This document shows, in pieces, positions 1 to 11,291 of a DNA stretch of 36,658 bases (positions are counted from its first letter, which is position 1; every line of letters begins with the position of its first letter). Source of the DNA: Candidatus Nanoanaerosalina archaeon (lineage in GTDB: Archaea > Nanohalarchaeota > Nanosalinia > Nanosalinales > Nanoanaerosalinaceae); NCBI GenBank assembly GCA_022729275.1, contig JALDAH010000002.1:1-36658 (forward strand), in the 5' to 3' direction. The notes beneath the pieces were generated by a model, which ran no database searches, was not told the origin of the DNA, and worked only from the letters and a program-made list of their open reading frames with translations. Both the position numbers and the translations under genes were made by a program.

Positions 1-317
1 TCCGTGTTCTTGTCTCAGAACACGACTGACGGCTCGCGCTCTCACGCCCGCTACTGATTATCGGCACACCGAGAAGTTACCTCAGCGTATACCTAATCAG
101 CCGCAGTCCCATCCTAAGGCGCCGGAACATTTCAAGAAGACGCCATTCCAGGCAATTCTTCCCTATCCAGTATTAGCCTCAGTTTCCCGAGGTTATTCTG
201 GTCCTTAGGGCAGGTTGACTACGTGTTACTCAGCTTTCCGCTCCGATCTAAATCGGTCAGCTAGCATGGCTAAATCGGACTCCAAGAGCAGTGGCCTCCG
301 GCAGGAGCAACCGGAAT
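1..317 (-). rRNA. rrs: 16S (SSU) rRNA, 5' portion only; the gene runs off the left edge
   Basis: The reverse complement of 297-317 reads ATTCCGGTTGCTCCTGCCGGA, the archaeal SSU 5' terminus with one mismatch. The reverse complement of about 221-234 reads GCTGAGTAACACGT. GC is clearly higher than in flanking DNA. Track ORFs 215-406 and 226-426 are spurious. Confidence 0.9.
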
Positions 318-614
318 TACAGTCAATGAAGACTGTCGCACGCTCACAAAAGAGTGCTAAACCAAATCTCCCTCCAAAAAGAGAGATAAAGAAACTAGAC
401 TGGTAAAATATCACCACTATCGCCAATTACTTGCATCACACCCATTAGGGTGCTCATCATTTACTTCCAAAACAAAAGGAAGTTATTTACGTCAGCCAGC
501 CGTTACTAGCCGACAAAACCTTATTCCATCATCAAGATTTAAATAAACAACGGTACACCCAAAAACATGTTCTATGTCCTACAGGTGCGTAACACAAAAA
601 AGGTACATTAACAT

Positions 615-1748
615 TTATATATCCTCCTTCTTTAAACAACAAACTCTTGAACAGTTTGCTTCGCCTCTCATACCAACAATAAATTCAACTCCAAAAGGTT
701 CAGCGTTTGAAACTATTTTTTCCGATATGCTGCCGTCAAAAACAACCGCATAGGTATTTGAACCAAATGAGTCAAACCCGTCAGACATTCTAGAAGCAGG
801 TACCTTTCCAAGTTCATTAAGATCGTTGTCAAGAAACACTGCAGCTCGGGTGCCCACCAACTCCTTCAAGAGACTGGTAAAAACCGTTCTTTCGATGTCC
901 GAAACCTGGCATTCAACTTCATTTTCATCTTCCAAACTTTCTTCCTTTGAATTCTCTTTCATTTCGGCCAGACATAACTCTATCTCGTCAGAACTAAGAT
1001 CTTCAACCTCTTTTCCTCTAGGAGCTCTAGCTATAAAATCATATTCCACTTTCATATCCATCTCTTTCTTTATTAAATCTCCTCCTCTATCCCCATCAAG
1101 AAAAACAACAACTTTTTTATGATCTTCAGCTATTTCAGAAATTTTTTCGGGTACGGAAGTCCCTCCAATCGCCACAGCGTTGTCATAACCGTTGTTAAGG
1201 AGGTTTAAAACATCGCTTCTCCCCTCGACAAAAATTATTTCGTCAGAATTAAAAACTCCTGGACCAGCATATAACCCATAATAAGATTTAACGGTTGGGT
1301 CCATCCTTTTTCTAACGCTTTTTGAAAGATCTTCAGGTCCTGGAGCCTCATCAACCATGTTTTCAAGTATTTCTTGAGCTCTGTCCACTATGTAGCTTCT
1401 CTTAGAAATTCGAACATCTTCGACGCTTTCTACCTTTACATCTGCAATGCATGGGCCGACCCTGTCAATGGTTTCTAGTGAGGCGGCAAGGATCGATGTT
1501 TCTGCAGAATCCAGGCCGCTTGGTATTTCTAATCTGGCTTCTGAGTCGCCTTTACCGCTTTCAACCTCAACCTCTATACGGCCAACTTTGCCCTTTACTT
1601 GAAGTTTTCTTAAGTCCATGTCAGGACCTAATAAACCCTCAGTCTGGCCAAAGATCGCCCCAATTACGTCTGGTTTTTCCACAACTCCTTTTGAGTTAAT
1701 AACAGCTTTTATAATGTATTTTACAGATGAATCGTATAAGTTAGACAT
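615..1748 (-). CDS. dnaG: archaeal DnaG-type primase-like protein (Toprim domain)
   Basis: A 377-aa ORF. It carries Toprim signatures (IIFVEGRSDVLNLL ... VVVFLDGDRGGD). The N-terminal region (VEKPDVIGAIFGQTEGLLG) is typical of archaeal DnaG. It overlaps the upstream gene by 8 nt. Confidence 0.85.
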   Translation of the reverse strand: MSNLYDSSVKYIIKAVINSKGVVEKPDVIGAIFGQTEGLLGPDMDLRKLQVKGKVGRIEVEVESGKGDSEARLEIPSGLDSAETSILAASLETIDRVGPCIADVKVESVEDVRISKRSYIVDRAQEILENMVDEAPGPEDLSKSVRKRMDPTVKSYYGLYAGPGVFNSDEIIFVEGRSDVLNLLNNGYDNAVAIGGTSVPEKISEIAEDHKKVVVFLDGDRGGDLIKKEMDMKVEYDFIARAPRGKEVEDLSSDEIELCLAEMKENSKEESLEDENEVECQVSDIERTVFTSLLKELVGTRAAVFLDNDLNELGKVPASRMSDGFDSFGSNTYAVVFDGSISEKIVSNAEPFGVEFIVGMRGEANCSRVCCLKKEDI

Positions 1749-1995
1749 GATAATCCCGTAAAATACTTAATACTTCATCTTTTTCAATATCGATAATCAG
1801 CTTTTTCCTCCTTCTATGGTGTCCTGACATAATACCCGTCTTTTTTCCAAATATCTCAGATAGGCGTGTTATCAGTTCTTTATTGGCCTCTCCATGTCTA
1901 GGATCTGATTTAAGAAAAATTTTTGGGATGTTTCCAGATAGATCTACCTTGAACTCTTCGCTGCCTGTTTCGATCTTCACATAAAACGTTGCCAT
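1741..1995 (-). CDS. DUF167 / YggU-like (UPF0235) small protein
   Basis: An 84-aa ORF. HGEANKELITRLSEIFGKK...SGHHRRRKKLI fits the G-x-AN-x-x-L ... SG-x-x-S/R-R-x-K pattern of the family. It is coupled to dnaG by an overlap. Confidence 0.55.
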   Translation of the reverse strand: MATFYVKIETGSEEFKVDLSGNIPKIFLKSDPRHGEANKELITRLSEIFGKKTGIMSGHHRRRKKLIIDIEKDEVLSILRDYHV

Positions 1996-2028
1996 TAGAA
2001 TAAAATTGAGATATAAAACATTAAAATT

Positions 2029-2577
2029 TCATAGACTGTGCTCAAGTGGTTTATACCTCTGCCTTCTGGGCTTTCTGATGACCGGTTCCAGTCCAAAGTA
2101 GGCGCGTGTCTCATTGAGATACCTTCTTGTTTCTTCTTGAGCAAGTTCAACCCAGTAAAGAAACTGTTTGCTGTATACTGTGTTGAACCATATCCTTCTG
2201 AGGAACGAATGAATCCAGTTATCTTTTTCGCCAGGCATTGAAACCACAAGCTTTGTATTGACATCAAGCTGGACTGCTCCGTAGAGCCCTTCTCCCCCTT
2301 CCTTGTCCTTGAGAGGGGACTGGTTAAAATATCTTATATAAAACCTAAGCTCTGTATCAGATATCTGGTCTCTGAACCCTCCTTCCAACTGTCTTGTTGC
2401 TATTATTTCCACCTTGAAATCGTTGTTGTCAACGTTCTCCTCGTAATATACTTCATAAACATCATCAAAATTAAGATCTTGCTCAAGAATGTCCAGAAGC
2501 TTTTCATAGTACTTCACAACACTGAAAGTTTCGAACCACTCTTCCATTTCTACAACTTCTCTTTCCACCTTAAACAT
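2029..2577 (-). CDS. hypothetical protein, paralog 3 of a three-member family (182 aa)
   Basis: The ATG directly abuts the stop of the upstream gene, with GGAGGG 8 nt upstream. The C-terminal block NWIHSFLRRIWFNTVYSKQFLYWVELAQEETRRYLNETR aligns without gaps to the 153-aa protein. No known family was recognised. Confidence 0.7.
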   Translation of the reverse strand: MFKVEREVVEMEEWFETFSVVKYYEKLLDILEQDLNFDDVYEVYYEENVDNNDFKVEIIATRQLEGGFRDQISDTELRFYIRYFNQSPLKDKEGGEGLYGAVQLDVNTKLVVSMPGEKDNWIHSFLRRIWFNTVYSKQFLYWVELAQEETRRYLNETRAYFGLEPVIRKPRRQRYKPLEHSL

Positions 2578-3162
2578 TCAAGATCCCTCCTTCCCAAAGT
2601 CGGGTATAAATCCCTCTCTTTTGCTCCTTCCAATAGCCTCTGTAGATCCCAAAACCTGTCTAAAACGAGAAGCTAATTCAATGGCTAGTTCCTCTGCTTC
2701 TTCTTTGTAAACCTCCCACTCTGATTCTGAAACCCTTCCTTGCACAAAGTTCATTATGCTGCTCTTTATCGATGAGACGATGGAGGTTTTACCAACAAAA
2801 GTCTCCTCTACAAAACTGTCCAAATATCCCCATTCAGGGTCTTTTTTTCTTTCCACAGTTCCTGTGATCACGAATCTTCCTTTGACAGTATCTTCACCAT
2901 ATTTCCTGTTAGGTCTTGGTTTTTTCACTCTTGTCTTTATCTTGATTCTTATCCGTGTGTACGGATCCTTGTAATTATAACCTATAATATCTGGTTTAAT
3001 AGGTAGAGACTTCCACATCTCGCTTCTGTCCTCCTCTATTTCATCAAATCCCAGTTCTTCCATTATTCTCAGTGCGTGTCTGTAGTATTCAAAAATCTCA
3101 TTTATATTTCTCCCATATATCTCTTCCCTTCTCTCTATAACCTCCTCTTTCTTGGGATCCAT
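2578..3162 (-). CDS. hypothetical protein, paralog 2 of a three-member family (194 aa)
   Basis: A GAGG lies 7 nt upstream of the ATG, 9 nt after the upstream stop. It shares the N-terminal Y-Y..L.I.E..L.FD pattern and the C-terminal W.Y..F/V ... EEAEELAIELASRFR block with its neighbours. Confidence 0.7.
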   Translation of the reverse strand: MDPKKEEVIERREEIYGRNINEIFEYYRHALRIMEELGFDEIEEDRSEMWKSLPIKPDIIGYNYKDPYTRIRIKIKTRVKKPRPNRKYGEDTVKGRFVITGTVERKKDPEWGYLDSFVEETFVGKTSIVSSIKSSIMNFVQGRVSESEWEVYKEEAEELAIELASRFRQVLGSTEAIGRSKREGFIPDFGKEGS

Positions 3163-3171
3163 ATGATCGCC

Positions 3172-3633
3172 TCACAAATTCTTTAAACTTCCTCTGAGTT
3201 CTGAGTGAACCTCTTTTAAAAGCTCTCTGGCGTCTTCTTTCCATTTTCCTCTAGCCCAGCCATAGACCAATTTATCATAGACGCTTCTAAATGCATAGTA
3301 CCATACCGATCTCGTTCCTGAACTATTAGAATACTTTGTAACGACTTCTCCTTTTGAATCGATCGTAACAGACGCTGATGATCCTTCAGGGTTGTCTGTT
3401 GTTATATTGAGAACCAGCGTTATTTCTAAAACAGTAAAATCATCCATCTCGTTGTAACAGTTTATCTTGGATATTATGAGGCCTCTCTCAACATGGTGTC
3501 GGAATTTCTCCTCTTCAACCCGATCAAACATGAATCTTTTTTCTAAAAGATCTTTAACCTCACTATATGCTAACTCCCAATCAGAAACATCGATCGTTGT
3601 GGTTTTCCTACCAGCCTCCTCTTCTATATACAT
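3172..3633 (-). CDS. hypothetical protein, paralog 1 of a three-member family (153 aa)
   Basis: First gene of the triplet. A TATA-like TTATTTTAA on the minus strand (3656-3664) is centred about 27 nt upstream of the ATG, which fits a leaderless mRNA. The C-terminal block is VWYYAFRSVYDKLVYGWARGKWKEDARELLKEVHSELR. Confidence 0.7.
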   Translation of the reverse strand: MYIEEEAGRKTTTIDVSDWELAYSEVKDLLEKRFMFDRVEEEKFRHHVERGLIISKINCYNEMDDFTVLEITLVLNITTDNPEGSSASVTIDSKGEVVTKYSNSSGTRSVWYYAFRSVYDKLVYGWARGKWKEDARELLKEVHSELRGSLKNL

Positions 3634-3665
3634 AACAAAAAATGAACTTCACAACTTAAAATAAG

Positions 3666-3940
3666 TTACCTAACAGTCCAGTACTTCGGAATGTTTGTGG
3701 TTAATTCTTTGGTTTCACGTTTTTTCTAGTTAATTGTTCAGAAAAATGTTGGAAATGGAGTAGGTTTAAGTAAACTAGAGAGGTTCTAGGGTTGAAAAAA
3801 CAGGTTTACAGGGCTTCTAGTCACAGTTACAAACAATAGTTACAACTAATAAAAACATAACCGTCGGAAAAAAACCTTGAAAAAGACATACAAAAAGAAG
3901 TATACGACTTCTTCGATAATTCTATACGCCTATAACCACA
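3666..3940. repeat. island repeat, copy 1 (tail of module X plus full module Y)
   Basis: CCTAACAGTCCAGTACTTCGGAATGTTTGTGGTTAATTC...GTTTTTTC...AAACTAGAG...GAAAAAACAGG...CTAGT...ACGACTTCTTCGAT. It aligns by eye with 5800-6025 and 6797-6960. Confidence 0.8.
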
Positions 3941-4020
3941 ATCTAACAAAAGCCAAAACATGAGTCCTCCACTGGAAAATATGGAAGATTTTATATAACT
4001 ATTACAATTTAATTCCTGTT

Positions 4021-4431
4021 ATGTCCAACATTAAAGTGGTATTAAGTTCGAGTATGTCTTTTTTTGACAAAATAAAAAAATGGAGAGATAAACTGGAACA
4101 AAATAATTTTAAAGTGATTTTTTATCCTGAAAAAATAGAAGGAGACATAGCCAAAGGATACAGAAAAGAGTTCAAAAAATGTTATTCATCGATCAAGGAA
4201 ACAAATAAACTTGTCGTACTCAACTTTGAAAAAAACGGTGTGCCAGGTTATATCGGGGCCGGAGTCTTCGCAGAGATGGCTTTCGCACTAGGTATTGACA
4301 GAAAAGTCGATGTAAAATATTTAAATCCTATTTCAATAGAGAAACTTCCCTATGCTGAGGAGCTTAAGTTATGGAAAAAACTAGAATGGATATCAAAATT
4401 TGAAAATATGTCTGATCTCTGCAAAAAGTAA
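4021..4431 (+). CDS. orphan protein, possibly nucleoside 2-deoxyribosyltransferase-like fold (136 aa)
   Basis: A clean ORF. A TATA-like TTTTATATA at 3989-3997 is centred about 28 nt upstream of the ATG. The pattern LVVLNFEKNGVPGYIGAGVFAEMAFALG resembles the D/N-x-hydrophobic...G-x-x-G-x-x-x-E-x-G/A-x-A motif of that superfamily. The family call is weak. Confidence 0.6.
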   Translation: MSNIKVVLSSSMSFFDKIKKWRDKLEQNNFKVIFYPEKIEGDIAKGYRKEFKKCYSSIKETNKLVVLNFEKNGVPGYIGAGVFAEMAFALGIDRKVDVKYLNPISIEKLPYAEELKLWKKLEWISKFENMSDLCKK

Positions 4432-4570
4432 ACACTCACAACATTCACTAAATCTAACGGTCACGCTTTTTGAAAGAGCTTTGTTTTTTATTATATGCTT
4501 CATATATAAAAACAGTTCATAATTTCTGATAAGTCTAAACCATGTTTTCTAACACATTCCAGATTCTCAT

Positions 4571-4850
4571 CAACACCACCAAAGAACTCCTTGGTAAAAT
4601 ACAAAATGAAAACAGTGTACCAACAAAACCACTGGTCGGCAAACCGGTGAAGAAAGCCTGCATGCAACTTTTGATGAATTCATTGATAAATTATACATAC
4701 CTAACTACTGAAAACACCTCCTCCCAGTACTTCAGAAACCAATGCTGTCAACTTGATTCCGTTTTTTCATTCCAAAAAGAGCAGAAAAATCAGTTTGAGA
4801 ATTTTTAAAGTTGTTGACAGTTTTAAAAACCTTCGAGCATCGGCAGATGA
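4571..4850. repeat. island repeat, copy A (full module X plus degenerate module Y)
   Basis: Module X is nearly identical to 6650-6796 in two blocks of about 30 nt. The Y part keeps only CCAGTACTTCAGAA, CGTTTTTTC and CAGAAAAAT. Confidence 0.65.
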
Positions 4851-4895
4851 AAAGACAAATCTAATCAATAAAGATGATGTGTTATAAGTCCTAGA

Positions 4896-5717
4896 TTATA
4901 TATATACATCTATCTCGGTTTTCTCGTTTATGGTCCAGTGGTAGTTGATCCCTATTTGTCTGGGTATGTTGTTTACCTTGTATTTGATCTCAGTTATCCT
5001 GTAATCCTTATCCGCAAACTGTTCGAAAAATTTTTCTTCCTCCAAATACTGTTTGAAGTCTTCAAGGTACAAAGTGTCGTATTCCCCGTGATCTTTTGCA
5101 AATTCTAAAGTATGCCTCCATAAAGCAAACTCCTCAAGATTTGTATAGTTGAAAATATCGATTTTTTTATCCATGACAACTTCTGCAACATCTTTCCAGC
5201 TGTCGTACTTCAAAAGAAATTCTTCAATAGGAATATCTGATTTCAAAGTGTTAATTCCTTTAAACAGGTCTTTGTTAATCCTTGACGTTATTGCTAGGTC
5301 TGGGTAGTCTTCTAACCGTATCCTTCTGCCTGTTGAAAACCTTTGTCTGACCTTGCTTCCTCTTCCGTAATGTCCTCCGGTATTCACAAGCAGGTTGTAT
5401 CTGAAAAGAAACTTTTCTTCCTCCATTGTCAAGTCCTTATCAGTGTTTTTAGATATTTTTTCAAGGTCTTCCCTGATGCTTTCATAGAAGGTATCAACCT
5501 TTTCAAGCTCCTCCTCAACCTTTGATTCAATGGATATAGCTGTCAGAAAAGGTGTGATAGTGTGTTTCTCAAAGTCAAAGACCCCAGTCGCTTTCTGCTG
5601 CTCTAAGTGTTTAACTATTTTTTCCCTGTCCAGTTTTTTGAGCTCTTCAAAGTTTTCCACTTCATATATGTAGTCCCTTCCGTTCTGAGAATAAGGTTGT
5701 TCTTTAATAGCTTCCAT
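4896..5717 (-). CDS. orphan hypothetical protein (273 aa from the internal ATG)
   Basis: A long clean ORF. AAGGAG lies 7 nt upstream of the ATG at 5717, so that start is preferred over the track start at 5753. No family was recognised. Confidence 0.65.
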   Translation of the reverse strand: MEAIKEQPYSQNGRDYIYEVENFEELKKLDREKIVKHLEQQKATGVFDFEKHTITPFLTAISIESKVEEELEKVDTFYESIREDLEKISKNTDKDLTMEEEKFLFRYNLLVNTGGHYGRGSKVRQRFSTGRRIRLEDYPDLAITSRINKDLFKGINTLKSDIPIEEFLLKYDSWKDVAEVVMDKKIDIFNYTNLEEFALWRHTLEFAKDHGEYDTLYLEDFKQYLEEEKFFEQFADKDYRITEIKYKVNNIPRQIGINYHWTINEKTEIDVYI

Positions 5718-5799
5718 CCTGCACTCCTTAAAAATTACTACTTTTACATACATAAAAGTTTTAGCGGTGGCACAGTGATTAGTAATATTTTTAGTTAAA

Positions 5800-6025
5800 C
5801 TCTTTAATTTCTCGTTTTTTCTAATTAATTCTTCAAAAAAGAGTTGGGTGTGAAGTAAGTTTTGTCAAACTAGAGGGTTTGTAAGGTTAGAAAAACAGGT
5901 TCCCAAGGCCTCTAGTAATAGTTAGGACTAAGAAAAACATTTTAATTTTGAGAAAAAACCGGTGAAGAATGCAGACAGAAAGGAGTTAACGACTTCTTTG
6001 ATTATCCTAACTACTTAACTACAAA
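5800..6025. repeat. island repeat, copy 2 (module Y only)
   Basis: Over GTTTTTTC..AAACTAGAG it matches copy 1 at 48/62 and copy 3 at 50/62 in an ungapped hand alignment. It contains the inverted repeat CTAGAGG...CCTCTAG. Confidence 0.8.
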
Positions 6026-6067: not shown

Positions 6068-6595
6068 TTAATATGATTCTGAACTCCAAATCCAGTTAAC
6101 TATCGATTCAAAAACATTTTTAATCCATCTGATTATTGGTCCTGGTTTATCTACAGGAGCACTATGATCTCCTTCAACATCATAATCCTCAAAATATCCC
6201 CTTTGTTCTCTTTTTACGGTACCATTAATTCTGTTGCCAGCTGTCAGTTCATATTCATCGATTTCTTCTTCATCAGGTATAGATATACTTGCTTTTTCTC
6301 CCTCAGGAAACTCATCTAGACAGTTCTCTGTTCTATTTGAATTACTCAGATTAAAAATTTCAGAACGATTCGCTGAAGTTATATCAACCTCTAGAACATA
6401 TCTTTCAGGAGCATATAGGGATATATCCGAGCTAGGAACTGCTTCCTCATAACCTACCTCAACTATTTCGCCTTCTACATAGCAAAAAATCGGCGGGGCT
6501 ATCGAAAGAGAAATTGCATTTGTTGAAAGAAAAATTAATATGATCAATACCAAGCACGAGATTAAAAGCAGCTTATTATTATTTAACTGACCCAT
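6068..6595 (-). CDS. orphan secreted or membrane-anchored acidic protein (about 175 aa)
   Basis: The N-terminal hydrophobic segment LLLISCLVLIILIFL is followed by an acidic domain. There are four N-x-S/T sequons (NRS, NLS, NRT, NGT). The ATG at 6595 is preferred over the TTG at 6601. Confidence 0.6.
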   Translation of the reverse strand: MGQLNNNKLLLISCLVLIILIFLSTNAISLSIAPPIFCYVEGEIVEVGYEEAVPSSDISLYAPERYVLEVDITSANRSEIFNLSNSNRTENCLDEFPEGEKASISIPDEEEIDEYELTAGNRINGTVKREQRGYFEDYDVEGDHSAPVDKPGPIIRWIKNVFESIVNWIWSSESY

Positions 6596-6649
6596 AAACA
6601 ACGTTTAAATAAAAACCACATAAAAACCTAACCCTTGAACACAGACCTC

Positions 6650-6960
6650 ACTAACACATCCAAAGAACTCCTTGGTATAATACAAAATGAAAAAGAGGTT
6701 ACTGGCAACCTCTTGGTACTAATAAATCATATGAAGAAACTTTGTAGGAAGGAAGCAAAAGATTCCTTGATAAAATTTTACATGCCTAACTACTGACAGT
6801 CCAGTACGGAATGTTATTGGTTAATTCTCTGAATTCACTTTTTTTTCTATCTAATGATTCAGAAAAAGGTCGGATGTGGAGCAAGTTTTGTCAAACTAGA
6901 GGGTTTGTAGAGTGGGAAAAACAGGGTTACAAGACCCCTAGTAAGAGTTATATCTAGCAG
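6650..6960. repeat. island repeat, copy 3 (full module X plus full module Y)
   Basis: X spans 6650-6796 and Y spans 6797-6960. This is the most complete copy. Confidence 0.8.
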
Positions 6961-6975
6961 GAAAATACCGATATC

Positions 6976-6983
6976 AAAAAAAA
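6976..6983 (-). terminator. oligo-T tract directly after the CBS gene stop
   Basis: An A8 run on the plus strand gives T8 on the coding (minus) strand, beginning 12 nt after the TAG stop. Archaeal RNA polymerase terminates at oligo-T tracts. Confidence 0.35.
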
Positions 6984-6994
6984 TTATTACATAT

Positions 6995-7435
6995 CTATGG
7001 TCCTGCAGCAAGCTCCTCTAAAAGATCAACATAACCCGGCCATGTATGAAGTAAATCGGTCTGAGTTACTATACCAACCACTTCTCCGGATCCTGAAACA
7101 ATAGGAACTCTAGAAATATCGTTCTTGATCATTTTTACCGCCACATCATAAACATTATCGGATTCAAAACTGACTATCACATCTTCCGTCATGATATCCT
7201 TGACTTTGATCTCGGATACATCCTCCCCTTCTGCCACTACTTTATATAATATGTCTTTTCCAGCTATTATACCTATCACTTCATTGTTTTCTACTACAGC
7301 TAATCCTCTTACATCTTTTTCATTCATTTCTTGGGCTGCTTCTTTTATAGAAGCATTTTTATCGATTCCATATACATCATTGCTCATTATTTCGCTGACA
7401 CTTAGTTTGTTCATACCTAATTTTTTATTCCTCAA
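6995..7435 (-). CDS. CBS-domain pair protein
   Basis: Two CBS repeats are present: VSEIMSNDVYGIDKNASIKEAAQEMNEKDVRGLAVVENNEVIGIIAGKDIL and VKDIMTEDVIVSFESDNVYDVAVKMIKNDISRVPIVSGSGEVVGIVTQTDLL. Confidence 0.85.
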   Translation of the reverse strand: MRNKKLGMNKLSVSEIMSNDVYGIDKNASIKEAAQEMNEKDVRGLAVVENNEVIGIIAGKDILYKVVAEGEDVSEIKVKDIMTEDVIVSFESDNVYDVAVKMIKNDISRVPIVSGSGEVVGIVTQTDLLHTWPGYVDLLEELAAGP

Positions 7436-7814: not shown

Positions 7815-10800
7815 TTATTTAGATGTGAACTGACCAAGACTGGACTGCCTGTCAGCTCTGCCGAATAAAGATATAATCTGGTCCTTTAAAAGATAAATAT
7901 ACTGTCTTCTATAATTAGAAACCTTAAATTCATCAGCTATTTCCTCAGAGGGTTCAAGATATTTTCTTATAGCGCCTTCAGAAACTGTCAGAAGTATTCT
8001 GCCTCCGCATCTTGTACATACTCCTCTCAAAGGAACTCTCCTGAACTTTTCATTACAGTTCACACATCGGAATCTCTGCCTAGAAAAAGCGTTCAAGTTT
8101 CCCTTTATATCAGGTATAAAATGCTCTGTCAATAAAAGCTCGGCCAACATATCTTCATTGACGGATTTTATTTTTTTCCCGAGATCAAGTTGTGTCTGAA
8201 CTTTTTCGGACATCTCTCCAAGAGTAACATAGTTAGACTGAACAGGACCGTCTTCTATGTCTTTAGTAGGGTGTGTAAAATCAAAATCAAAAGACTGGTT
8301 TTTTTCGATCAAGTTCTCAGCAAGACCTATATTTAACTCGAAAGGAGAACAGAAGTTTTGGGATTTTTCATAAAGTTCCAAGGGATACTCAGAAACCACG
8401 TCAACGTTCCATGATTCATCATCAACCTCGTCAGGATGTAGAACTGTTGAAAGGATTAAAGGAGCGTCCATGGTTCTAGAACCTGTGCTGTCCGGTAAAA
8501 ACTGTCTAGAAAAGTTTAATAAAGCATCCATCAAAAGTATTACCGAATCCTCATCTCCGTCGCAGTTTCTTCTTTTTGCAGCATGCCAGTAAGGGTGTGC
8601 ATAAGTGCCCTTTGCATCGGCAAAACCTATTATCCTTCCAACTATGCCTCCGGATGTGTGAGGTGCAAGACCTATCACAAGCTCCCCTACCAGGTCTTCT
8701 GCTTTTTCAAAGTTGTAAAAAGAATCCAGTCCATAAAATTTTTCAAGTAGTTCATCAACGAACTTAGAAACGTTTAGAAGGTATTCATCGGCGGAAAAGT
8801 TGTAGCTGTTGTTGGATAAAACTATGTCTTGCGGCTTTAATACCAATACCTGATCGTCTCTTTCAAGTTTTTCTCCATTCACATCTTTTTTGTAACCCAG
8901 TTCTCTCAATTTATCAACAGAGGTTCCTATTTCACAAGGTTTAAAATGTGTAAGCGTCAAATCAGTTGAATCATATCTTACTGTGCCGTCCTTGTTGACA
9001 TATAGGTCGTACTTTTCTCTCAAAAGACCTTTCTCTATCGGTTCAACATGCCTTAGTTTACCGGTTACTTTTTTCGGTGACTTCAAAAGTTCTGGAAGAA
9101 CCCTCAAACCAAGATTTCTCTTTGCCTTGTTCATAAGTTCCTTGACCGGTATCTTGGTCTTTTTACTTCTCGACGTTTCTCCGCCACAGTTTCCGCATTT
9201 ATTTTCTTTACCTCTTTTACCACATTTTTTACACGTCCTCACCGGTTCGGATTTTTTCCCACAGTAAGGACAGTAGGAGAAATGAACTGTTCTGTTGCAT
9301 TCAGTGCAGAAATTATGTATTATTTCCTCGTTAACCGTTCCGTGTTCGCCATAACTTCTCATAAAATTACGCATTCTTCCTCCTTCCTCAGATCCACAGG
9401 GGAAAAGAAAGTGGGGGTCTCCTTTTAAAGACCTTCTCTCGGCTTTCTCCGGTCTTCCCATCCTTGCTCCTATATACACGGAATCTCTTTCTCGGATTTC
9501 AACTCCCAAAACATCCGAGATGCCTTTTATTATGCTTTCTTCAAAATCGCTTAAATCTGTTTTTTCAGGTTCCAGAGACCTATAAAGAATCTTAGAATCC
9601 TTTTCAGACAATATTATTTGTTGGCCGGATATTTCATGCTGAACAAAAAGTTCCTCAAGAGGTTTCTTAGCGGATTTTCCTAGCTTTAGCTTTTCGCCTT
9701 TATCAAAATCTGCTTTTTCAACTTCTTCATAAAGTTTTTTGAACAGTTCAAAATCTATACCAGACCAGAAAAACGTCATCCAGGGATGCAAAGGAACTTC
9801 TAATTTCTCCGATATTTTTATAGCTTCTTCAAAAGTAGGTTGTCCAAAAGGTCTTTTGATAAACTTCTTGATATCGAGATCTTTTTTTCCGTTTTTTTCA
9901 AGTGCTTTCCTCACATCCTTGGACCACCACTCAACAACATAAGGGGAAGGCACAAGATCTTTGCCATTCTCCACGAATTCTCCAAATGGAACAAGAACAT
10001 CTCCAAGGAAAAGAATCTCATCAATATCTCCTATGATCTCTCTGGCTTCCTCTCTGCTGTTTATACTCAAAACACTTCCGTCCTCCAGTCTTACAACAGG
10101 GCCTTCCACTGAATCGCAAGGTGTTGAAACAGTTGCCTTTCCAGGATATTCCATCTTTAGCTGTGTTCCGAGAGCCATAAACCTCTCAGTAACTTCCATT
10201 GTAGCAGGGTGGAAAGAAAGAGCTGCAAGACCTCCGGTCCTCGATCTTCCATATCTTATCCTGAAACCTCCTCTAACACCTGGAAAAGAAAAAATAGGTC
10301 TGCCCGCGACTACATGTTCCAAAAACTTGTCCGAAGCTTCATAAATTTTTTCTCCCTCGTCTTCTTCCTCAGCCTCTTCGGTACCGTTTCCATTATCTGA
10401 ATGTATTTCTTTCTGTAATTCCAGATAATCTTCGACCCATGACCAGTTTTCTATCCCAAAATCCTCTCCATAATTGTTTACTCTTTTCTTTATTTTTGGA
10501 GCTTTTAGTGGAAGACCATCAAGGTATATCAGACACATACCGCCTCTAATTCTGTTTGTATCCACTCTTTCTAAATCTTTGTAACTTGAAACTTCAAGGC
10601 TTTCTGTAGGAGTTCCGGTAATTTCAACAGGGACGTTCTCAGCTATAAAACGAGTTTCTTTTCTTTCAGGAGTGTACTGTTTTGTAGTGATCCTTGTAAA
10701 ATAATCCTCTACCTCAACAGCATACCTTTCGATTTCATCATCTCTTATCTTGAATCTTTCCAGACCGATGTTTTTTCTGATATAATCAGCCAGTAAAACA

Positions 10801-11291
10801 GACATTGCAGAAGCGGTTCCTCCTGCAGATCTTATAGGCCCTGCATACGAAACAGCCAGATACTTTGATCCATCATCATTTCTCTTTATGAATGTGTCGG
10901 ATATTCCTTCCAAAGGTGCTGTAACAATACCTCCTGTTATATAAGCGAGTCCTACTCTTATACCTGCATCCACAGCGTTTTCGAGTGATTCAAACTTAAC
11001 AAACTTTCCGCTCGCTATTTCCTCTCCTATCTTGAAAGCCACTCTTTCGTCATTTTTTCCATACTCTTTTTCCAGTTCTTCTATCCTTTGCTCCGCTCCA
11101 CAACCTTCAAGTTCAGGATAAAGAGACGCTGATATCAGTCCCAAAGATTTAGCTGCTAGATTTTCTGCAACAGGGATATCGACATTTTTTTCCGGGTCTT
11201 TTCCTTTTGACCTAGCTTTTTCAGCTACTACATATGCCTTCTCAGTCTTTTCCTCTATATCATTAAAATACTGTTCCATCCGTTCTACCAA
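7815..11291 (-). CDS. dp2: DNA polymerase D (Pol II) large catalytic subunit DP2
   Basis: An 1158-aa ORF with the characteristic DP2 N-terminus and Cys clusters (CTECNRTVHFSYCPYCG...CKKCG...CGNCGG; CVNCNEKFRRVPLRGVCTRCGG). GAGGTG lies 7 nt upstream of the TTG start at 11291. No intein-sized insertion is evident. Confidence 0.95.
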   Translation of the reverse strand: MVERMEQYFNDIEEKTEKAYVVAEKARSKGKDPEKNVDIPVAENLAAKSLGLISASLYPELEGCGAEQRIEELEKEYGKNDERVAFKIGEEIASGKFVKFESLENAVDAGIRVGLAYITGGIVTAPLEGISDTFIKRNDDGSKYLAVSYAGPIRSAGGTASAMSVLLADYIRKNIGLERFKIRDDEIERYAVEVEDYFTRITTKQYTPERKETRFIAENVPVEITGTPTESLEVSSYKDLERVDTNRIRGGMCLIYLDGLPLKAPKIKKRVNNYGEDFGIENWSWVEDYLELQKEIHSDNGNGTEEAEEEDEGEKIYEASDKFLEHVVAGRPIFSFPGVRGGFRIRYGRSRTGGLAALSFHPATMEVTERFMALGTQLKMEYPGKATVSTPCDSVEGPVVRLEDGSVLSINSREEAREIIGDIDEILFLGDVLVPFGEFVENGKDLVPSPYVVEWWSKDVRKALEKNGKKDLDIKKFIKRPFGQPTFEEAIKISEKLEVPLHPWMTFFWSGIDFELFKKLYEEVEKADFDKGEKLKLGKSAKKPLEELFVQHEISGQQIILSEKDSKILYRSLEPEKTDLSDFEESIIKGISDVLGVEIRERDSVYIGARMGRPEKAERRSLKGDPHFLFPCGSEEGGRMRNFMRSYGEHGTVNEEIIHNFCTECNRTVHFSYCPYCGKKSEPVRTCKKCGKRGKENKCGNCGGETSRSKKTKIPVKELMNKAKRNLGLRVLPELLKSPKKVTGKLRHVEPIEKGLLREKYDLYVNKDGTVRYDSTDLTLTHFKPCEIGTSVDKLRELGYKKDVNGEKLERDDQVLVLKPQDIVLSNNSYNFSADEYLLNVSKFVDELLEKFYGLDSFYNFEKAEDLVGELVIGLAPHTSGGIVGRIIGFADAKGTYAHPYWHAAKRRNCDGDEDSVILLMDALLNFSRQFLPDSTGSRTMDAPLILSTVLHPDEVDDESWNVDVVSEYPLELYEKSQNFCSPFELNIGLAENLIEKNQSFDFDFTHPTKDIEDGPVQSNYVTLGEMSEKVQTQLDLGKKIKSVNEDMLAELLLTEHFIPDIKGNLNAFSRQRFRCVNCNEKFRRVPLRGVCTRCGGRILLTVSEGAIRKYLEPSEEIADEFKVSNYRRQYIYLLKDQIISLFGRADRQSSLGQFTSK

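Follow-up and report, generated by a model that had tools for sequence, protein, structure and literature searches.

Proteins of the SRPBCC/START/Bet v 1 type adopt the helix-grip fold, of order beta-alpha-alpha-beta6-alpha, in which seven strands surround a C-terminal helix. The TBP-like fold of SCOP (d.129), represented for example by one repeat of the TATA-binding protein (TBP) or by the N-domain of RNase HIII, runs beta-alpha-beta4-alpha, and in TBP its exposed sheet face binds nucleic acid. Complexes made of three paralogs, in turn, have precedents in DNA replication, namely heterotrimeric PCNA and RPA. Here we compare with these systems an array of three adjacent genes, named A, B and C, of Candidatus Nanoanaerosalina archaeon (Nanohalarchaeota in the GTDB taxonomy), found on contig JALDAH010000002.1 of assembly GCA_022729275.1, the whole stretch analysed (positions 1 to 36,658, 36,658 nucleotides (nt)) being referred to as the window. 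The array and its putative expression signals are laid out as follows (aa, amino acids; ORF, open reading frame; SD, Shine-Dalgarno):

3633..3172, minus strand: gene A, ORF of 153 aa, the first and best-conserved paralog
3162..2578, minus strand: gene B, ORF of 194 aa, the paralog whose beta-sheet has a conserved basic face, RIRIKIKTRVKKPRPNRK, and whose tail, AIGRSKRE, is basic
2577..2029, minus strand: gene C, ORF of 182 aa, the paralog with the conserved tail G-L-E-P-x-x-x-K-x-R-R-x-x-Y-x-P-L
3665-3656, minus strand: TATA-like box CTTATTTTAA, read from the sequence, its centre ~27 nt 5' of the gene A ATG
3173-3165, minus strand: SD-like motif GAGGCGATC, sharing bases with the A stop codon; 2 nt separate it from the B ATG
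2590-2582, minus strand: SD-like motif GGAGGGATC, in the 3'-terminal part of B; 4 nt separate it from the C ATG

Judged by their sequences, A, B and C are true diverged paralogs, with a similarity beyond chance. Pairwise BLASTP matches are weak (A-C, E=7e-4 with 22% identity over 139 aa; A-B, 0.007; B-C, 0.034), but near-full-length profile-profile comparison of the ortholog alignments with hhalign (134-149 columns each) gives 4.7e-8 for A-C, 1.5e-9 for A-B and 5.1e-8 for B-C, confirming at E values of 1e-8 to 1e-9 the kinship that an initial annotation, made from the letters of the window, had claimed. Identity is ~20% between paralogs and 40-90% within the orthologs of each; gene A has 22 orthologs with an identity of 56-100%, several of them source-labelled Nanohaloarchaea, and among close homologs of A, B and C the source labels read Candidatus Nanohaloarchaea or Nanohaloarchaeota. 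Four residues, Y23, F36, E41 and R147, are invariant in the joint A/B/C alignment, and a single Glu is conserved at >=90% in the family alignment of 122 sequences. Neither alignment contains a conserved catalytic constellation, and none of the 122 family members has a transmembrane segment.

These proteins belong to a family that, in agreement with the initial annotation, was not recognised by any profile search: A, B and C showed nothing above noise when scanned against Pfam, NCBIfam, PHROG and PADLOC, with no match to the defence-system models of PADLOC, and the family profiles had no match to PDB sequences at E<=10. Additionally, no Pfam domain was found in 88 scanned relatives, and no viral predicted structure (BFVD, Foldseek) matched at E<=1e-3. 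A match of A to phrog_2333, a family without functional annotation, at E=0.0039 was not reproduced in the 88 relatives and was discarded. Functional names are absent among the family representatives that were looked up, and no description of the three-paralog family was found in the literature. The array proteins define, in our view, a genuinely undescribed DPANN family that spans phyla and has neither a Pfam or NCBIfam model nor a solved relative.

The extent of the family was delimited with a profile run exhaustively against 1.84 billion cluster representatives (E<=1e-3), which returned 123 family representatives of 56-232 aa, each of them one single-stretch profile match. BLAST clustering separates five subfamilies, namely A-like, B-like, C-like, a 'D' group and an 'E' group. 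The D group corresponds to Aenigmatarchaeota, with query relatives at 222 GTDB species loci, and one E-group cluster contains a protein labelled Candidatus Woesearchaeota; the results on gene context in Aenigmatarchaeota given below refer to 80 of the 222 species loci (L007-L086). The family is spread over Nanohaloarchaeota, Aenigmatarchaeota and Woesearchaeota-like genomes, phyla that reportedly fall within the 'Cluster 2' DPANN distinguished by Dombrowski and colleagues in 2020 (PMC7414124), and it occurs almost always as two or three paralogs in tight tandem.

Loci of the Nanohaloarchaeota type always show the order A-B-C, with gaps of 2-24 nt in the three examined besides the window. Copy number ranges from one to three across lineages; 78 of the 86 loci of Aenigmatarchaeota and Nanohaloarchaeota have precisely two paralogs side by side, ~0-9 nt apart. 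Woesearchaeota-like metagenome loci mostly hold two or three members, three adjacent ones being found in many (e.g., L100, L101, L102 and L106-L110), and the second array member of L095 was detected by hhalign alone (95.6% probability). For the E-group (Woesearchaeota-like) array positions, no one-to-one orthology with A, B and C could be resolved, which implies duplications that occurred several times over or so long ago that their traces are blurred. Because arrays of two or three tightly spaced paralogs recur across loci, the comparative data strongly favour the idea that A, B and C form a hetero-oligomer, which we consider highly probable. The three proteins would be subunits of one soluble complex, each a diverged copy of a single two-layer alpha/beta domain.

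The ORFs of 153, 194 and 182 aa lie where the initial annotation had placed them, on the minus strand and with gaps of 9 nt (A-B) and 0 nt (B-C, TGAATG), and the SD-like motifs that it had noticed upstream of the second and third ORFs are indeed present before B and C, in the window as well as in the relatives at loci L001 and L003. In the relatives, the motifs at these sites are AGGTGATC, GGAGG and GAGGTGG, with AGGTGATC in L001 and GGAGG in L003 at the site of B. An AT-rich box at equal distance from the gene A start is found in L001, L003 and L088, and this conservation of the TATA-like box suggests that gene A is a leaderless first cistron and that CTTATTTTAA is the probable promoter of an A-B-C transcript. 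Transcription from the TATA box would then yield a leaderless A-B-C mRNA, and translation of B and C from their own SD-like sites would lead to roughly equal amounts of the subunits. As a separate observation, all that stands between the paralog ORFs is stop-GDH (A-B) and a single stop codon (B-C) (window 2029-3633, minus strand). The three ORFs share one reading frame, so that read-through of the stop codons would yield a fusion protein; no natural A/B/C fusion is found among the 123 family representatives, all of them <=232 aa.

AlphaFold2 models were obtained for A from a 31-sequence alignment (predicted local distance difference test (pLDDT) 82, predicted template-modelling score (pTM) 0.74) and for C from the 122-sequence family alignment (pLDDT 90.7, pTM 0.85), the conserved basic tail of C being of low confidence. 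Both models share the same order of elements, that is, a strand of ~15-17 residues, a helix of 15, four long antiparallel strands and a helix of ~40 residues. The initial annotation had described an acidic N-terminal helix, a beta-rich middle and a long C-terminal helix; the strands and the long C-terminal helix appear in the models, but the chain begins with a long beta-strand, and the first helix comes only after it.

When both models were compared with the PDB using Foldseek, SRPBCC/START/StARkin proteins ranked first, with E values of 1e-4 to 1e-3 and probabilities of up to 0.99. The top matches were CoxG (APE2225, 2ns9), Maqu_3174 (3p9v), the START domain of CERT, the StARkin domain of Lam4, Ups1/PRELID (Ups1-Mdm35) and PYL/Bet v 1, and the next ones were Cyt toxins and SecB. 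Array proteins and helix-grip proteins are alike in size (150-190 aa), in the N-terminal strand-helix, in the antiparallel sheet and in the long C-terminal helix. However, the models follow the order beta-alpha-beta4-alpha, with a five-stranded rather than a seven-stranded sheet and a single N-terminal helix where helix-grip proteins have two, and the top superpositions reach template-modelling (TM) scores of 0.17-0.35, below the ~0.5 criterion for solved SRPBCC members, at root-mean-square deviations (rmsd) of 8-17 A. Moreover, the SRPBCC/START profiles (START, Bet_v_1, Polyketide_cyc, CoxG, AHSA1 and others) match none of A, B and C at E<=1 and none of the 88 relatives at E<=0.01, and START-like proteins are not typically encoded as coupled paralogs, whereas the array proteins come as two or three of them. 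The START/SRPBCC-like fold guessed in the initial annotation is thus weakly supported, by the ranking of the matches but not by their quality.

In terms of element order alone, the secondary structure assigned by DSSP to both models (E-H-E-E-E-E-H) is that of the TBP-like fold, and the exposed sheet face, nucleic-acid-binding in TBP, is basic in B. The array models nevertheless have much longer strands (up to 17 residues) and a much longer final helix (40 residues), no sequence similarity was found, and no TBP or RNase HIII structure appears among the 50 best Foldseek PDB matches of either model. Other candidates, namely exosome RNase PH subunits, PCNA, the RPA/OB fold, GINS, prefoldin, SRP9/14 and proteasome chaperones, were rejected on domain, size or topology.

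Regarding the surface of the proteins, R78, K80, R83, R86, K94, K181 and R182 are invariant among B orthologs. Analysis of the strand register shows that strand beta4 of B alternates hydrophobic and basic residues, with Y-R-R-K-K-R on one face, and that the loop after strand 4 reads KKPRPNRK, the basic residues of strand and loop being invariant among B orthologs. This basic face stands out because the window proteome is otherwise acidic, with isoelectric points (pI) mostly of 4.2-5.8 (A, 5.2; B, 5.8; C, 4.9); family members from non-halophiles are mostly basic, with a median pI of ~9. Conserved basic C-terminal tails are found in B and C. In A, according to our own reading of the register, the invariant polar residues E70, T72, D92, K94 and E96 lie on the sheet face without helix cover, which fits an interface. 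The first half of the C-terminal helix, for its part, is very rich in aromatic residues.

The gene neighbourhood provides a further line of evidence. In the window, the genes that flank the array in relatives are:

1741..1995, minus strand: gene for DUF167 (YggU family), next after C at a distance of 33 nt (Pfam PF02594, 4.7e-8)
615..1748, minus strand: archaeal DnaG (Toprim), a recurrent neighbour downstream of the array (NCBIfam NF003108, 1.5e-116)
6995..7435, minus strand: CBS-pair protein, upstream of the array (Pfam CBS, 2.4e-28)

Both the distance to DUF167-dnaG and the identity of these two neighbours are as stated in the initial annotation. The stop of DUF167 and the start of dnaG overlap by 8 nt (window 1741-1748, ATGTCTAA), which suggests that their translation is coupled. 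The 33-nt spacer behind gene C contains an AT-rich box, TTTTATAT, that could provide DUF167-dnaG with a promoter of their own. Directly downstream of dnaG, an archaeal 16S rRNA gene is represented by its 5' portion (window 1-317, minus strand; Rfam RF01959, 278 bits) and is cut by the window edge.

Two contexts can be distinguished among relatives. In the first, found in Woesearchaeota-like loci, the order is (proteasome)-aCPSF1-CBS-array-DnaG, present in whole or in part in L006, L087, L094, L097-L101, L104, L107 and L111. Its Nanohaloarchaeota form, CBS-array-DUF167-DnaG, is that of the window, L001 and L088, and the family is thus often flanked by genes of RNA processing; DUF167 follows the array in every Nanohaloarchaeota-type locus seen (L001, L003 and L088), and a search for it between array and DnaG outside Nanohaloarchaeota found none. 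DnaG comes after the array in the window, L001, L088, L006, L098, L101, L104 and L107. In L098, a 117-aa stand-alone Toprim-like protein (1364-1717, plus strand; VLVEGEKD ... LLDRDKEG) is encoded between array and DnaG.

In the second context, which comprises Aenigmatarchaeota together with L091/L106, a divergent 518-586-aa protein of unrecognised family is present in 73 loci, along with a 607-aa TIM-barrel-like protein and nucleotidyltransferases. Directly after the array (within ~9 nt), Aenigmatarchaeota and L091/L093 encode an 82-92-aa protein with the N-terminus MG[ILM]F..F.[RK]KKK and a C-terminal coiled coil, and a Yip1 membrane protein and an Obg-like GTPase often come next. The neighbours of 586, 607 and 92 aa from Aenigmatarchaeota have no Pfam, NCBIfam or PDB-sequence match and no homolog in the window. 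Examples of these three families are encoded at:

L057, 3940-5700, minus strand
L010, 1948-3771, minus strand
L042, 7053-7331, plus strand
L091, 3288-4844, minus strand
L093, 602-871, plus strand

The co-occurrence of the paralogs, their shared fold, the lack of a catalytic signature, the basic surface of B, the synteny across phyla and the literature on Csl4 lead us to propose, as a tentative reading that is the best supported of those considered but possible rather than probable, that the array encodes an obligate non-enzymatic hetero-oligomer with affinity for nucleic acid, acting together with DnaG and/or aCPSF1. The ligand would most likely be RNA, contacted by the sheet face of B, which is exposed and invariantly basic, and by the basic tails at the C-termini of B and C. 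In Cluster-2 DPANN, the complex would serve archaeal DnaG, and perhaps also the nuclease aCPSF1/FttA, as a partner or adaptor, with the neighbouring CBS-pair protein as a possible nucleotide-sensing regulator. In this regard, Cluster-2 DPANN are devoid of the exosome cap subunit Csl4 (PMC7414124). In Sulfolobus, DnaG needs Csl4 to bind the exosome (PMC3672285), so that the loss of this DnaG tether makes an adaptor role in Cluster-2 DPANN conceivable.

The array resembles the archaeal exosome cap and DnaG (Rrp4, Csl4, DnaG) in being linked on the genome to DnaG and to aCPSF1, a nuclease of RNA processing, and the family occurs in DPANN lineages reported to lack Csl4. The RNase PH, S1, KH and Zn-ribbon domains of exosome subunits are nonetheless absent from A, B and C in Pfam and NCBIfam scans, and the predicted fold is different; a physical link of the array proteins to DnaG or the exosome is a conjecture.

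Several observations weigh against the proposed role with DnaG and aCPSF1. No RNA- or DNA-binding domain was detected in A, B and C, and the best structural matches are lipid- or ligand-binding folds rather than nucleic-acid binders. Since AT-rich DPANN proteomes often have high isoelectric points, the high pI of family members is weak evidence, and the position beside proteasome-aCPSF1 could be an inherited gene order without functional meaning. The initial annotation had asked whether the array is always near dnaG: it is in several Nanohaloarchaeota and Woesearchaeota-like loci, but the adjacency is partial in the latter (~5 of the 13 with enough downstream sequence), and neither L003 nor any of the 80 Aenigmatarchaeota loci shows it. 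Finally, the second context, with its Yip1 protein and its small protein of amphipathic N-terminus and coiled coil, points towards membranes.

The main alternative, which we regard as doubtful, takes up precisely this last point and considers the array proteins as a helix-grip (START/SRPBCC-like) heteromer carrying isoprenoid lipids or other hydrophobic ligands between the sheet and the C-terminal helix; in some lineages, the small amphipathic-helix protein would recruit the complex to membranes. Such a carrier would suit DPANN cells, which depend on hosts for membrane lipids. The idea is consistent with both Foldseek searches, led by CoxG, Maqu_3174, CERT START, Lam4, Ups1/PRELID and PYL/Bet v 1 at E=1.5e-4 to 1e-3, with the aromatic-rich first half of the C-terminal helix, and with the 82-92-aa amphipathic/coiled-coil protein, often followed by Yip1, after the array in Aenigmatarchaeota and L091/L093. 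Against it, the poor superpositions (TM 0.17-0.35, rmsd 8-17 A) were obtained despite a confident query model (pTM 0.85), strands and N-terminal helices are too few, the SRPBCC models of Pfam and NCBIfam match 0 of the 88 relatives, neither the basic sheet face nor the basic tails are accounted for, and the membrane-linked context is absent in Nanohaloarchaeota. The more specific form of this alternative, a DPANN-specific heteromeric lipid shuttle of a new helix-grip variant with which these lipid-auxotrophic symbionts would take up or distribute host-derived membrane lipids, docked to the membrane in some lineages by the small array-adjacent protein, appears quite unlikely to us, and we assign a similar probability to the idea that the complex replaces the lost Csl4 as the DnaG anchor in Cluster-2 DPANN.

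Improbable in our judgement is the role of the array in DNA replication, as a helper of primase or polymerase D or as an origin-associated heterotrimer with DnaG as primase. Its appeal lies in the Nanohaloarchaeota block Cdc6 - PolD DP1 - PolD DP2 - CBS - array - DUF167 - DnaG and in the three-paralog precedent of heterotrimeric PCNA and RPA. The replication setting emphasised in the initial annotation does hold in Nanohaloarchaeota, but the conserved neighbours elsewhere are aCPSF1, the CBS protein and DnaG: the upstream genes in Woesearchaeota-like loci are proteasome and aCPSF1, and in Aenigmatarchaeota no replication gene adjoins the array. Crenarchaeal PCNA1-2-3 likewise consists of three diverged paralogs, and the array lies near replication genes in the window; this is an analogy alone, since PCNA has ~245 aa as opposed to 153-194 aa, the array fold is neither OB nor the beta-alpha-beta3 repeat of PCNA, and no Pfam match to PCNA or any other replication family was found.

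Equally improbable is that the paralogs do not assemble and stand in tandem simply because the gene of a single-subunit protein, e.g., a SecB-type homo-oligomeric chaperone, was duplicated in place several times, for although the copy number of 1-3 across lineages, the Woesearchaeota-like array positions without one-to-one mapping onto A, B and C, and SecB among the weak structural matches speak for it, the paralogs are old, as seen from their low mutual and high within-ortholog identity, and their order and tight spacing are kept across whole phyla, which is unexpected for redundant duplicates in strongly reduced genomes. Taken together, the paralogy, novelty and coupled operon put forward in the initial annotation stand, while its fold guess is weak and its emphasis on replication applies in part.

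The remaining content of the window includes genes for PolD DP2, PolD DP1, Cdc6/Orc1, SecDF and AglB. The window PolD DP2 (7815-11291, minus strand, 1158 aa) is free of inteins, and that of L003, from the relative QJJ-7 (199-5127, plus strand, 1642 aa), contains one, with Intein_splicing and LAGLIDADG matches. In relatives, the CBS gene is normally 34-40 nt upstream of the first paralog, whereas here a repeat-framed insert of 3.3 kb, which forms a lower-GC stretch, separates CBS from A. The repeats and the ORFan genes that they frame are:

3689-3924, 5784-6009 and 6810-6983: repeat of ~175-235 nt in three diverged copies (66-76% identity)
4566-4612/6647-6693: shorter repeat, spacing ~2085 nt
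4688-4711/6773-6796: shorter repeat with the same spacing of ~2085 nt
4021-4431, plus strand: ORFan gene o136
4896-5753, minus strand: ORFan gene o285
6068-6601, minus strand: ORFan gene o177

Two or three coupled paralogs have been kept across at least three phyla with very small genomes, which makes it very likely that the family is important to DPANN. At present, its value is that of a well-delimited new family with testable hypotheses rather than of a solved mechanism; the three small soluble proteins are a concrete, clonable target, and the family is a candidate phylogenetic marker for Cluster-2 DPANN. Its study could inform how RNA processing is organised around DnaG in Cluster-2 DPANN after the loss of Csl4, and could likewise contribute to understanding how DPANN symbionts handle lipids derived from their hosts.

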